Positions 157 through 2,881 of a stretch of 58,987 nt of DNA are shown piece after piece. The notes under the pieces are model-generated. The model saw only the letters and a list, made by a program, of their open reading frames with translations, had not been told where the DNA came from and ran no database searches. Positions within the stretch are counted from its first letter, which is position 1. The number at the start of each line of letters is the position of its first letter. Both the position numbers and the translations under genes were made by a program. Source of the stretch: a bacterium (GTDB lineage Bacteria; Hydrothermota; 32-111); contig JAQVDU010000001.1 in assembly GCA_028698175.1 (NCBI GenBank), forward strand, positions 1 to 58,987, given 5' to 3'.

Positions 157-528
157 GGGAGAATTAGAAGCAAGGGAGACCAAGCATTGTTCGGCGGTTA
201 CACTACTTTGCAGATGAAGAAAAAATTTAACATACCGGATAAAAGACCGCTTGCCGACTTTCTGCCGACAATCACAATTAAAGCAAAGGATTTGGCAGCG
301 GAGATTACCAATTTCAATGTCAAGAAAAACGATCTGAAGGGTGAGGATTCGATAACGATTGAACATGTGAAGAATAATAAAGATGTCAGAGCAGTTCTTA
401 ATAAAAGCGGTATCAAACCCGAAGAGCTTCCTCCTGAAGAGGATTTAAAGAAGATTGAAAGAAAAGTAAAAGCAGAAGAGAAAAGATTAGGGAAAACAAC
501 AAAGAAATCTATACGGAGGAATGATTGA
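130..528 (+). pseudogene. dinD: C-terminal fragment of a DinD-like (DNA-damage-inducible protein D) gene; the N-terminal part is missing
   Basis: The frame is open only from the stop at 127-129, and the first ATG/TTG of the track ORF is 187. The translation (..FGGYTTLQMKKKF..LAAEITNF..KGEDSITIEHVKNNKDVRAVLNKSGIKPEELPPEEDLKKIERK) resembles the C-terminal third of E. coli DinD (from memory). Upstream homology ends at the 22-bp repeat. Confidence 0.5.
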
Positions 529-636
529 CAGAATCATTTGAAAAAATCAGCTCACTGGTACATTGTTTTAAGAATCATGAGGTGCGTTCAACATATTTCA
601 ATTGCAGAGAAGTAAAGAATCCAAGAATCGTTTCCG
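514..636 (+). repeat. Leader copy L1: a 45-nt copy of the R-M gene RBS/TTG start/first 12 codons, then about 75 nt shared with copy L3
   Basis: 514-558 matches 53237-53281 at 43/45 positions. 558-630 is roughly 75-80% identical to 2789-2860. The leader frame TTG 525..686 is open for 53 codons and ends just after the ATG at 662. Confidence 0.85.
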
Positions 637-661
637 CATTAATTTTAATGGGAGATAGAGA

Positions 662-1408
662 ATGCGTAAAAAAATATTTAGATTAATTGAAATTATTAAT
701 GAAAACAGTATTCTAATAGCTTTATTAGGATTTCCATTTGTAATTTTAAATTTATCATCGTTGATTGTAGGTTGCATTTGGGTTGCATTTCATGGCCTTT
801 GGCTTCTTGTTGTTGGTAGTATTATCTTTGCATTTTCATTTCATAGGACATACTTGTTTATAACAACTCCGACATTCTTGTGGGGAGTGTATGCTGCAAA
901 AAGATATCTTCAAAGCAAAAATATAACGCTCCTTTATATAACAAAACTTATTATTGAATTTATTGAACTTATGATAAGATTATTAGTAATCGTATTTGTA
1001 ATATACATTCTTTTGATTATAAAAAGCGATTATGATCTACCTTTAATTCCAATATTTTTAATAGGATATGCATTAATAATGTATCCGTTTCAGGCTCTAA
1101 TTATGACAGATAAGCAAAAGAATTATGATGTGAGCGACAGTGTTTATTTAATTAATATCTTTATTAATTATGTTTTGTTAATTATTGGATTTGTCAATCT
1201 TAATACTATAATTGCTGATATTATAAAAGTATTATTCGTGATGAACAATCTGTTATACTTGGTTTTGCAGATTTTGTACACCAAAAATGTTATAGAAGAA
1301 ATGAAGATTTCGGCGAATAGATCTGAAGAAGATACTGAGTTCACTAATATGAGCTGTAAATCAGATGAAACCGTGAATGTAAAATCAACTAATTCAAATG
1401 CCGTTTAG
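662..1408 (+). CDS. Multi-pass membrane protein of unknown function (about 6 hydrophobic helices)
   Basis: 248-aa ORF with GGAGAT upstream and long hydrophobic stretches. Composition is very AT-rich (the 60-nt line at 961 has 11 G+C). Confidence 0.55.
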   Translation: MRKKIFRLIEIINENSILIALLGFPFVILNLSSLIVGCIWVAFHGLWLLVVGSIIFAFSFHRTYLFITTPTFLWGVYAAKRYLQSKNITLLYITKLIIEFIELMIRLLVIVFVIYILLIIKSDYDLPLIPIFLIGYALIMYPFQALIMTDKQKNYDVSDSVYLINIFINYVLLIIGFVNLNTIIADIIKVLFVMNNLLYLVLQILYTKNVIEEMKISANRSEEDTEFTNMSCKSDETVNVKSTNSNAV

Positions 1409-1493
1409 CTGTTACGGGATATAATAAATAAAAAGGGGTAGTTTTAAAGACGGAGAAGTGATTGATAGAAAGATTTGAAAGAATAATCAATTC
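1406..1493 (+). repeat. Leader copy L2: TATAAT (1420-1425), GGAG, and a TTG start resembling the R-M N-terminus
   Basis: About 80% identical to 2701-2787 by eye. The encoded start M-I-E-R-F-E-R-I resembles the R-M start M-T-E-S-F-E-K-I. Confidence 0.75.
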
Positions 1494-1683
1494 TGATCCA
1501 AAGAAAACAAGCAATGATATTTTTAACAGCGAACAGGTTAATGTTGAAAACAGAAAATATTATTGCTGTCAAAAGATGGAGAATAACAGAGAAATGAACC
1601 TCTACATAGTCGACCAAATAATCGACTACTTACAAAATAAACTAAGAGAGTGGTTTGATAGAAATATAATAATTACTTATTAA
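1462..1683 (+). CDS. Hypothetical 73-aa protein whose first ~10 codons derive from the R-M-like leader
   Basis: TTG start 7 nt after GGAG. The stop lies 4 nt before the DUF4238 gene. No recognisable domain. Confidence 0.35.
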   Translation: MIERFERIINSDPKKTSNDIFNSEQVNVENRKYYCCQKMENNREMNLYIVDQIIDYLQNKLREWFDRNIIITY

Positions 1684-1687
1684 AATA

Positions 1688-2626
1688 ATGAGTGCCAAAC
1701 ATCACTATGTTCCACAATTTCACTTGAGAATGTTCTCTGAAAACAAGAAAATAATTTGTTTATATAATAAGAAGCGTAATAAAATAATATTGAATGCAGC
1801 TATTAAAAATCAGAGTTATAAAAGGAATTATTATATTTATAATAATCTGAATATTGAAAAAGATCTTTCTACTATCGAAAATAGCGCATCTCTATTATTT
1901 AAAAATATAAGTAAGTTGAATTTTAAATTTAATGACAATCTAAAAAAAGATTTAAGTGCATATTTAATGCTTCAATACTCAAGAGTTCCTGCAAATATAG
2001 AAAAATCAATTCAAATGAAGAAGAAGATGGAAATAATAACAGGAATAAATGAAGCTTGGAGTCATTTACATTCTATGACGATACAATTATCTCTGCTTGA
2101 AGAAATTGCTGATTTATCAGTTGTTATTCTGAAAAACAATGGTAAATGCGAATTTGTTCTTTCCGATAATCCCGTATTAATGATTAATCCTCTATTGAGA
2201 GAGGAACATGTAAATAAAGGGTTCGGGCTAAAAGATAAAGGATTGATAATACTGTTTCCCATATCTCCCCAAATTGTAATTATGTTAATAGACTCTAATG
2301 CATATGAGTTGCATTCGAATAGAGAAATAAAGTTATCAAAGAAAGACATATTTATAATTAATTATTTACAAATATTGAATGCTTCTTCAAATGTTTACTT
2401 CAACAAAATAATTGATAATGGCTTGATTCAAAAATACAATAAAAGTGATAAAAATGATAATTCATCTATGGATATTAAAATACATAAGGTGGAGAACGGT
2501 GAATATATCCAAATAACGAATGTTAATAGAGTAAATAGTGAAAGAATAAATTTCTGTTTTATAAAGAAAATGAAAAGAGAGTATTTAGGTTCATTAATAA
2601 GTTACAGTCATTTAATAAGAACATAG
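1688..2626 (+). CDS. DUF4238 family protein
   Basis: The N-terminus MSAKHHYVPQFHLRMFS matches the characteristic HHYVPQFYL(R/K)xF start of DUF4238. Confidence 0.7.
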   Translation: MSAKHHYVPQFHLRMFSENKKIICLYNKKRNKIILNAAIKNQSYKRNYYIYNNLNIEKDLSTIENSASLLFKNISKLNFKFNDNLKKDLSAYLMLQYSRVPANIEKSIQMKKKMEIITGINEAWSHLHSMTIQLSLLEEIADLSVVILKNNGKCEFVLSDNPVLMINPLLREEHVNKGFGLKDKGLIILFPISPQIVIMLIDSNAYELHSNREIKLSKKDIFIINYLQILNASSNVYFNKIIDNGLIQKYNKSDKNDNSSMDIKIHKVENGEYIQITNVNRVNSERINFCFIKKMKREYLGSLISYSHLIRT

Positions 2627-2692
2627 GAGTCGAAGGGACCGGTTCAAGTAAATTTGGAAATTATTAATTCAATTTGGATGAAGATAATGATG

Positions 2693-2881
2693 TTGATTTT
2701 TAGCTATTTCAGGATATAATTACGAAAAAGGGATAGTTTTAAGACGGAGGAGCATTTGATAGAAAGTTTTGAAAAAATCAATTCATCAGTACATTGTTTT
2801 AGGAATTTTGAGGTATGTTCAACATGTTTCACTTCCAAAAAAAATAAGAATCCAAGAATAACTCCCGAGATCAAATGTTAG
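2693..2881 (+). promoter_or_regulatory. Leader copy L3: sigma70-like promoter (TTGATT 2693-2698, 16-nt spacer, TATAAT 2715-2720), GGAGG, and a 41-codon leader ORF (TTG 2756..TAG 2881) overlapping the next ATG
   Basis: Shares its upstream block with L2 and its downstream block with L1. The leader stop TAG 2879-2881 overlaps the ATG at 2875. Confidence 0.7.

Follow-up and report, generated by a model that had tools for sequence, protein, structure and literature searches.

The 58,987-bp contig JAQVDU010000001.1, from the metagenome-assembled genome (MAG) of a Hydrothermota bacterium (GenBank assembly GCA_028698175.1), is hereafter called the window, i.e., the whole stretch of DNA that was analyzed. 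This genome holds one intact type IIG restriction-modification (R-M) gene, found at the right end of the window, and three further copies of the 5′ end of that gene, here called heads, which stand at the left end without their enzyme bodies and are each followed by unrelated, AT-rich genes, here called cargo. The sequence makes it likely that these heads now act as expression heads for the replacement cargo; the fuller reading, to which we give a probability of roughly 60%, is that they would be R-M stubs kept as promoter and ribosome-loading heads after the gene bodies were replaced within a defense island. A preliminary description of this DNA had offered two separate explanations for the recurring 5′ leader, namely that it is a portable expression and/or recombination adaptor, or that its copies are the scars of R-M paralogues, and our results support a combination of the two: scars in origin and, probably, expression signals in role.

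The leader is 46 nt long and occurs four times, at 513-559, 1450-1496, 2744-2790, and 53236-53282, here labeled L1, L2, L3, and L0, respectively, with L0 being that of the intact gene. Its pattern, GGAGNNNNNNTTGAYAGARNNNTTTGAAARAAT, has four exact matches in the whole window (at 515, 1452, 2746, and 53238), all on the + strand, and none in 100 dinucleotide-preserving shuffles, so that its recurrence at three places besides the R-M gene was recovered as first described; a profile built from the leader copies found no further, weaker copy in the window. In all copies, GGAG and six nucleotides precede a TTG start. Type B leaders, i.e., L2, L3, and a counterpart on a related metagenomic contig (L032), have a promoter block (pattern TTTAGCTRTTNNRGGATATAAT), whereas type A leaders, i.e., L0 and L1, are without it and begin at CGGAGG directly after the 3′ end of another gene. 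The copies, and the gene that L0 heads, are the following:

513..558, + strand: L1, type A leader with no promoter block; GGAGG, TTG at 525, and about 11 codons; 96% identical to L0; profile match with E = 1.7e-13.
1398..1496, + strand: L2, type B module; TATAAT (1426-1431), GGAG, and TTG 1462 are kept, and the −35 element is overwritten by the end of cargo 1; profile match with E = 1e-23.
2627..2789, + strand: L3, full type B module; TTGATT-16-TATAAT at 2693-2720, GGAGG, and TTG 2756; 10/12 in a promoter scan.
53236..53282, + strand: L0, the type A leader that heads the intact R-M gene; an unrelated gene lies immediately upstream, and similarity to L1 and L032 sets in at CGGAGG; profile match.
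53248..56109, + strand: intact type IIG R-M gene, 953 aa from TTG, with HSDR_N nuclease, Eco57I/MmeI-type methylase, and TaqI_C specificity domains (Pfam, PADLOC).

Regarding the relationships between copies, L0 and L1 agree at 43 of 45 positions (514-558 vs 53237-53281) and at 96% across 46 nt. L1 and L3 are 78% identical across 116 nt (513-628 vs 2744-2859), and the part of this alignment that lies beyond 558 and outside R-M homology, hereafter the extension (pattern GTACATTGTTTTARGAATNNTGAGGT), is alone 81% identical across 70 nt. L2 and L3 are 81% identical across 90 nt (1404-1493 vs 2699-2784), a block that includes TATAAT, GGAG, and the TTG start. The mosaic chain of the preliminary description, L0 to L1, L1 to L3, and L3 to L2, therefore holds in all its links. 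The longest exact run between any of the leader copies is about 20 nt. Because L2 and L3 both have ATCAATTC, in place of the ATCAGCTC found in L0, L1, and L032, they appear to be sister copies.

By comparison with homologues, we take the leader to be the translation-initiation region of one type IIG R-M lineage, consisting of GGAGG, TTG, and the first 11-12 codons (perhaps 17). The L0 gene is an Eco57I/MmeI-like type IIG enzyme by its organization, in which a single polypeptide unites an N-terminal PD-(D/E)xK-type nuclease, a gamma-class N6-adenine methyltransferase, and a C-terminal specificity domain; it matches HSDR_N, N6_Mtase, Eco57I, MmeI_Mtase, and TaqI_C in Pfam and REase_MTase_IIG in PADLOC (E = 2.8e-182), and GNPPY is seen in its translation. 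Its closest protein homologues are P0122 (87%), P0123 (82%), and P0124 (72%), with all others at 62% or less. Since P0122 and P0123 begin with MIESFERISSLAKQFEEN and MTENFEKISSLVKQFEEH, respectively, the leader codons are a genuine R-M N-terminus, and a comparable N-terminal helix is present in more distant members. The public record starts the gene at TTG codon 11 (53278; 943 aa), which has no Shine-Dalgarno sequence, whereas TTG 53248 has GGAGG and looks like the better start, being the one used by the closest homologues.

The origin of the promoter block is indicated by L032, which carries an intact 994-aa R-M gene (encoding P0122) with 93.6% DNA identity to 53237-54935. Its positions 90-213, directly followed by this intact gene, are 86.4% identical to 2657-2780 (L3) in the window, and its positions 132-211 are 84% identical to 1404-1484 (L2). 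The shared block comprises about 100 nt upstream of the ribosome-binding site as well as the leader, including TTGATT-16-TATAAT. As the same block heads an intact R-M gene in L032, L2 and L3 represent the native promoter and 5′ end of the R-M lineage, carrying about 100-130 bp of the gene's own promoter region, and this supports the earlier view of the copies as R-M 5′ ends whose bodies are gone.

The comparison with L032 also speaks of rearrangement. The left neighbors of the promoter-leader module differ between L032 and the window. On L032, what precedes the head and its R-M gene is the end of a SecB-like gene, with 84% identity to 6786-6841 of the window; in the window itself, the head stands upstream of that SecB gene, with other cargo, so the island has been rearranged between relatives. 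The preliminary description had asked whether different cargo sits behind the same leader in related genomes: this is so for the one relative that carries the module, with the R-M gene in L032 and a zinc-ribbon/Mrr pair here, together with the different left neighbors. As a separate matter, the R-M homology to L032 ends at 54935, exactly where the GC content falls from 42.5% to 26%, and the specificity part from 54936 to 56109 is not shared. This C-terminal part of the gene has been swapped, and the recognition specificity therefore probably differs between the relatives.

The heads are not followed by remnants of the enzyme. When the 953-aa R-M protein was compared with 1-10000 by tblastn, only its residues 1-18 (at L1) and 1-26 (at L3) were matched, and nothing in the cargo. 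R-M homology thus does not continue after any of the additional leaders, and simple decayed paralogues are not supported; a paralogue with a residual body at L1, L2, or L3 was likewise rejected, as only the heads match, with at most 15 further nucleotides. What surrounds L1 and follows L1 and L3 is listed here:

154..528, + strand: DinD / PDC-S13-type C-terminal fragment, 5′-truncated; the L1 ribosome-binding site lies in its last codons, and its stop overlaps the L1 TTG (TTGA).
559..640, + strand: extension, copy 1, common to L3; 81% identical to 2790-2859.
2790..2871, + strand: extension, copy 2, reaching up to the cargo ATG.

In the first 24 nt or so of the extension, a possible 9-nt insertion is followed by 15 nt of R-M codons 12-17 (p 0.002-0.06). 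Beyond these, it could not be sustained as an R-M remnant: the similarity to the R-M body is not significant (shuffle p 0.1-0.3), and no counterpart of the remainder was seen in the R-M gene or in the loci that were fetched. It was also rejected as a coding sequence, having no codon-position bias in six frames and stops in five of them. Structured RNA was considered for both the extension and the leader and was discarded, because the folding z-scores (+0.36, −0.54, −1.08, and +1.78) do not go beyond those of shuffles; Rfam was likewise negative, both for the window at the gathering threshold and for 1-10000 at E ≤ 1.

The dinD fragment to the left of L1, whose TTGA overlap with the L1 start is as previously noted, corresponds to about 108 C-terminal residues of 288, i.e., to positions 178-285 of 288 of the NCBIfam DinD profile and to 172-278 of 281 of the PADLOC PDC-S13 profile. 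DNA homology to the dinD genes of two other loci (L025 and L028) begins at 154-163, with 72-76% identity; in comparison with them the C-terminal tail is of normal length, and neither has a leader after its dinD homologue. L1 may accordingly represent the junction of a former dinD-R-M operon, as far as the sequence tells. Two further observations touch on dinD: stand-alone C-terminal DinD fragments of about 100-113 aa are common among protein matches on long contigs of many phyla, and in L028, where parts of dinD adjoin a type IIG-like gene, the gene consists of two pieces at 7490-8342, one of 142 aa with Bro-N and one of 113 aa, beside a ResIII+Eco57I protein and RhuM. Truncated or split dinD beside R-M genes may be a recurring pattern.

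Reading on from each head, the leader frame and the cargo meet in the following order:

525..686, + strand: leader open reading frame (ORF) 1, 53 codons; stop at 684-686, 22 nt past the cargo ATG at 662.
662..1408, + strand: cargo 1, a 248-aa multi-pass membrane protein; 27% GC; own GGGAGA Shine-Dalgarno.
1462..1683, + strand: leader ORF 2, in which the leader is fused to a 73-codon ORF; stop at 1681-1683, 5 nt before the DUF4238 ATG at 1688.
1688..2626, + strand: cargo 2, a DUF4238 protein of 312 aa (Pfam PF14022, E = 5e-38); without Shine-Dalgarno.
2756..2881, + strand: leader ORF 3, 41 codons; stop at 2879-2881, overlapping the cargo ATG at 2875 (ATGTTAG).
2875..4406, + strand: cargo 3, a module of a membrane-anchored zinc-ribbon protein (2875-3330; without Shine-Dalgarno) and an Mrr-type nuclease (3327-4406), joined by an ATGA overlap (Pfam).

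These frame ends agree with the earlier description, as does the presence of a different low-GC cassette after each additional leader: the cargo has 26-31% GC, in comparison with 42.5% for the conserved part of the R-M gene and 44% for the core of the contig. Cargo 1 has no match in Pfam, PADLOC, or NCBIfam. The cargo genes are complete, because the PF14022 match of cargo 2 starts at profile position 1 and the zinc-ribbon protein has 151 aa, in comparison with 152 aa in homologues. The zinc-ribbon/Mrr pair recurs as a unit at two other loci (L036 and L037; 44-49% protein identity), with unrelated DNA upstream and, at L037, adjoining the apparent 3′ end of a tRNA gene, as judged by eye; these pairs are too distant to say anything about the source of the extension. 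In the public annotation the zinc-ribbon protein has 104 aa, as compared with 151-152 aa for the ORF and its homologues, which include an N-terminal hydrophobic segment, and the public start looks wrong.

Four lines of sequence evidence, none strong alone, suggest that the heads are still in use, and the portable expression adaptor of the preliminary description gains indirect support from them. Of the 142 aligned positions of L3 and L032, 22 are mismatched, yet the 20 that make up the −35, −10, Shine-Dalgarno, and start all agree (P = 0.026). In all three copies the leader frame is free of stops as far as the cargo start, which shuffled sequence achieves in 9% of trials for L1, 17% for L3, and 0.2% for L2, where the frame runs through 61 further codons of DNA with 28% GC; both other frames contain stops. 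The 73-codon ORF of L2 matched only itself in a comparison with 1.84 billion representative proteins and has the look of a spacer held open, not of a gene. A Shine-Dalgarno sequence is present in 14 of 29 long ORFs in the window, vs a background of 16%, and is absent from the DUF4238 and zinc-ribbon starts. By sequence, the stub ORFs also have the properties of coupled upstream ORFs, i.e., a Shine-Dalgarno of their own and a stop at or near the ATG of the cargo, with DUF4238 and the zinc-ribbon gene having none.

Joining these observations, our reading would run as follows. The enzyme body would have been lost by recombination just downstream of the start at L1, L2, and L3, and its place taken by foreign, AT-rich defense cargo with intact start codons of its own. 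The heads would have been kept because they still worked, with the promoter providing transcription and the strong Shine-Dalgarno/TTG providing ribosome loading. The stub frame would then carry ribosomes to the start of the cargo, where termination on or next to the ATG would allow translational coupling; the DUF4238 and zinc-ribbon genes, which are without a Shine-Dalgarno sequence, would need it. The tandem order of heads and cargo may have arisen by duplication, by unequal crossing-over between heads, or by the stacking of head-plus-cargo units from different strains. Selection would keep the open frame and not the peptide, since the L1 and L3 copies of the extension show no codon-position bias, with 6, 11, and 5 substitutions at codon positions 1, 2, and 3.

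The same frames could instead be functional small proteins, for example a 73-aa partner of DUF4238 and regulators of 41 and 53 aa, which would share an N-terminal tag derived from the R-M enzyme. All three stub ORFs are indeed open and have a strong Shine-Dalgarno, but the lack of any relative of the 73-aa product, the predominance of second-position, and hence nonsynonymous, differences between the L1 and L3 peptides, and the fact that a tested DUF4238 system consists of a single gene, which protects against T7 (PMC9122126), make this highly improbable.

Several points nevertheless weigh against the reading of the heads as retained expression signals. The open-frame statistics of L1 and L3 are weak, neither fraction (0.09 and 0.17) being significant alone, and they are not independent, because both loci share the extension. 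The reading does not account for the source of these 70 nt. L2 is without a −35 element and has GGAGA in place of GGAGG, like a decaying scar, and the 73-codon ORF behind it could encode a genuine small protein. No coupling is needed for cargo 1, which is provided with a Shine-Dalgarno of its own. Selection alone does not account for the way in which junctions crowd within about 60 nt of the start codon. Finally, the module was found on only one related contig, and the evidence for cargo turnover thus rests on a single comparison.

Some of these points are what would be expected if the heads were neutral scars, i.e., nonfunctional pseudogene remnants whose signals are intact because they are young, with the cargo expressed by other means. 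The copies differ by only 14-28% and could be young; L2 has lost its −35 and one Shine-Dalgarno base, the extension has no codon-position bias, and cargo 1 has its own Shine-Dalgarno. On the other hand, neutrality does not readily account for an L2 frame that remains open over 61 further codons without encoding a known protein, for the absence of L3-L032 mismatches from the signal positions, or for DUF4238 and zinc-ribbon genes that are without Shine-Dalgarno and have their ATGs 5 nt past the stub stop or overlapping it. We consider neutral scars possible, but rather unlikely.

For the second half of the adaptor proposal, a role in recombination, the sole evidence is that junctions cluster close to the start codon, and no recombinase among the Pfam-scanned ORFs, no site, and no inverted repeats were found to go with it; a dedicated recombination role of the leader is unsupported. 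The junctions themselves are as follows. The left edge lies at CGGAGG in two different contexts (L0 and L1), the switch between types A and B falls within codons 1-8 of L0 vs L032, even though the bodies are 94% identical, and the junctions of the leader with the extension and with the 73-codon ORF lie at codons 11-12, or more broadly at 11-17. This clustering may be due to a mechanism, or selection may have favored keeping a functional initiation region with as little of the R-M gene as possible.

In its strongest form, the proposal would make the leader the target site of a directed system, integron- or shufflon-like, at which cassettes dock. The several independent junctions within about 60 nt of the start codon would fit such a platform, as would the toxin-antitoxin cassettes and recurrent intergenic modules of the island, which recall cassette arrays. 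Against it, the leader copies are all direct repeats with no flanking inverted repeats, no DNA or RNA structure beyond that of shuffles is present, the right-hand ends of the cargo have no common site, and the cassettes carry their own promoters, unlike integron cassettes. In addition, among the ORFs scanned with Pfam (most of those of at least 90 aa), there is no recombinase in the first 12 kb, and the only recombinase found is a XerC/D-like gene by trmFO, about 3 kb from L0. We regard this platform as very unlikely.

No IntI-type integrase was found by a Pfam/NCBIfam scan of most ORFs of at least 90 aa on a contig that starts at the left end of the array, so that a gene farther to the left would have been missed. 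The single tyrosine recombinase (49401-50270) scores 305 and 288 bits as XerC/XerD, far below the cut-offs for integron integrases, and is 40 kb from the array. There are no inverted repeats of 25 nt or more between the cassettes, and attC-like sites were absent by eye, with no systematic attC search; promoter hexamers are present in the L2 and L3 cassettes. An invertible or shufflon-type site finds no support either, with all four leaders on the + strand and no invertase among the Pfam-scanned ORFs. GTTAAGC at the L0 junction was considered as an integron core site (GTTRRRY) and was rejected, as the L1/L3 junction does not fit and such 7-mers are expected about every 2 kb. The viral contigs gave only chance matches, or none, to correctly spaced patterns or to other patterns of the module, and no plasmid or phage sequence matched the L3 module by BLAST. 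As for the XerC/D-like gene itself, it stands right after the TrmFO-like gene and is followed by a gene for a helix-turn-helix plus M78-peptidase protein (ImmA/IrrE-type; 49401-51513 in all), with some 2-3 kb between this region and the R-M gene downstream. The recombinase is probably a housekeeping Xer, but it could mark the edge of the right-hand island.

A more far-reaching idea is that the R-M head serves as a reusable socket, in which a promoter, Shine-Dalgarno, and start, with joining about 11-17 codons in, would receive defense genes that have neither promoter nor Shine-Dalgarno, express them via the stub ORF, and stack them by recombination between sockets. This would be a cassette-array principle distinct from integrons, possibly with directed joining; we hold it to be unlikely.

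That the array is a chimera, with repeats from strain variants mis-joined in the MAG, has to be considered since the window is a whole MAG contig with both ends in low-GC islands. However, 98-1291 and 1304-3696 are each matched at 100% by a Logan contig of run SRR22315504, and these two contigs, assembled separately and by another assembler, jointly span L1, L2, and L3, so the array is not an assembly artefact; furthermore, no exact run above about 20 nt is common to the leader copies. An assembly chimera is therefore extremely improbable.

As a class, the locus appears to be a variant of the known cassette turnover of defense islands. In the P2/P4 hotspots (Rousset et al. 2022, PMC9122126), unrelated defense genes, including DUF4238, likewise occupy equivalent slots by conserved sequence, with occupants that vary between relatives; there, however, the conserved flanks are whole neighboring genes, whereas in this locus what is conserved comes from the displaced defense gene itself, namely its promoter and first codons, in tandem and once per cassette. 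Integron arrays are similar in the single direction and foreign composition of their small cassettes, in the toxin-antitoxin cassettes of the island, and in expression signals supplied by the platform, but here each cassette has its own promoter/leader copy in place of one shared Pc, and the repeats are at the 5′ ends of cassettes and derive from coding sequence.

In the vsa system of Mycoplasma and in phase-variable type I hsdS loci, one expressed head is combined with silent, headless cassettes through inverted sites and a dedicated recombinase, producing variants of one protein. The likeness is that different downstream sequences are attached to a promoter and 5′ coding segment that stay conserved; here, in contrast, every cassette is headed, the repeats are direct, the cargoes are unrelated, and no linked recombinase was found. 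Translational coupling through overlapping or abutting upstream ORFs is known in bacterial operons, and the stub ORFs resemble this in where they stop relative to the cargo ATG (22 nt past it, overlapping it, or 5 nt short of it), upstream of genes without Shine-Dalgarno; the difference is that they are not independent genes but what is left of a displaced one, joined to sequence that is not conserved.

The turnover of defense islands is fast, and how newly arrived foreign genes come to be expressed is rarely addressed. The sequence of this locus suggests a simple route, by which the body of a resident gene is replaced, its promoter, ribosome-binding site, and first codons are kept, and the stub frame would deliver ribosomes. 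If this were general, orphan short ORFs or gene heads in defense islands would mark past replacements, and would predict which neighboring genes are expressed, and from where. It would also be a warning for annotation, as public annotation appears to place both the R-M and the zinc-ribbon start wrongly. Since only one genome and one relative are involved, this is a well-documented case and not a rule.

Regarding the wider context, both ends of the complete contig are low-GC defense DNA, while the core from 10 to 53 kb (about 44% GC) carries EF-G, an [FeFe]-hydrogenase operon, histidine kinases, TrmFO, and the XerC/D-like recombinase; several proteins of the window have type IX secretion sorting domains. 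At the left end, all on the + strand, the order is the dinD fragment, L1 with the 248-aa membrane protein, L2 with the 73-codon ORF and DUF4238, and L3 with the zinc-ribbon and Mrr-type nuclease genes, after which there are further cassettes, including two SecB-type toxin-antitoxin-chaperone sets and RHH/ParE. At the right end, behind the type IIG R-M gene (53248-56109), there is a TrlF-family ATPase, which is incomplete because the contig ends within it.

The left island contains other repeats. A second promoter-like module, GGGG(C/A)TTGACAAAA, is present at 5544-5575, 7149-7175, and 8838-8870, followed in two copies by 16 nt and TAAAAT. Its copies head, respectively, a HEPN-like, a 113-aa, and a SecB-like gene; a 125-aa, an MqsA, and a SecB-like gene; and RHH with ParE. 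Since this module heads three cassettes, the reuse of head modules in the island is not limited to the R-M leader. The two SecB-like chaperone genes lie at 6390-6803 and 8200-8634, one of them after an MqsA-type antitoxin (7548-8207), and they resemble tripartite toxin-antitoxin-chaperone cassettes.

Four copies of the 12-mer ATGGGGACGGTG are present, with 0.13 expected: two on the − strand, at 116-127 and 138-149, and two on the + strand, at 6923-6934 and 8666-8677. Every site has a partial tandem duplication locally, and NNTGA comes after it. The two left copies, in opposite orientation to the other two, adjoin the dinD truncation point at 154, and the 12-mer could be a recombination or insertion site, or could mark the ends of an element from 116 to 6934. 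Short GC-rich repeats, GCC(A/T/G)TGAGC, lie in AT-rich intergenic DNA at 5420-5465, 6985-7010, 7077-7132, and 9410-9474; a 56-nt repeat is 91% identical between 7077-7132 and 9419-9474, and the pieces GATAGATTCYTCA...TTCAGAATGACGG are shared by 8740-8840 and 9555-9615. In the core, two paralogous NuoF-like (Complex1_51K) genes of the [FeFe]-hydrogenase operon, at 40355-42007 and 42491-44065, explain the direct repeats D1 and D4 (72-75% identity).

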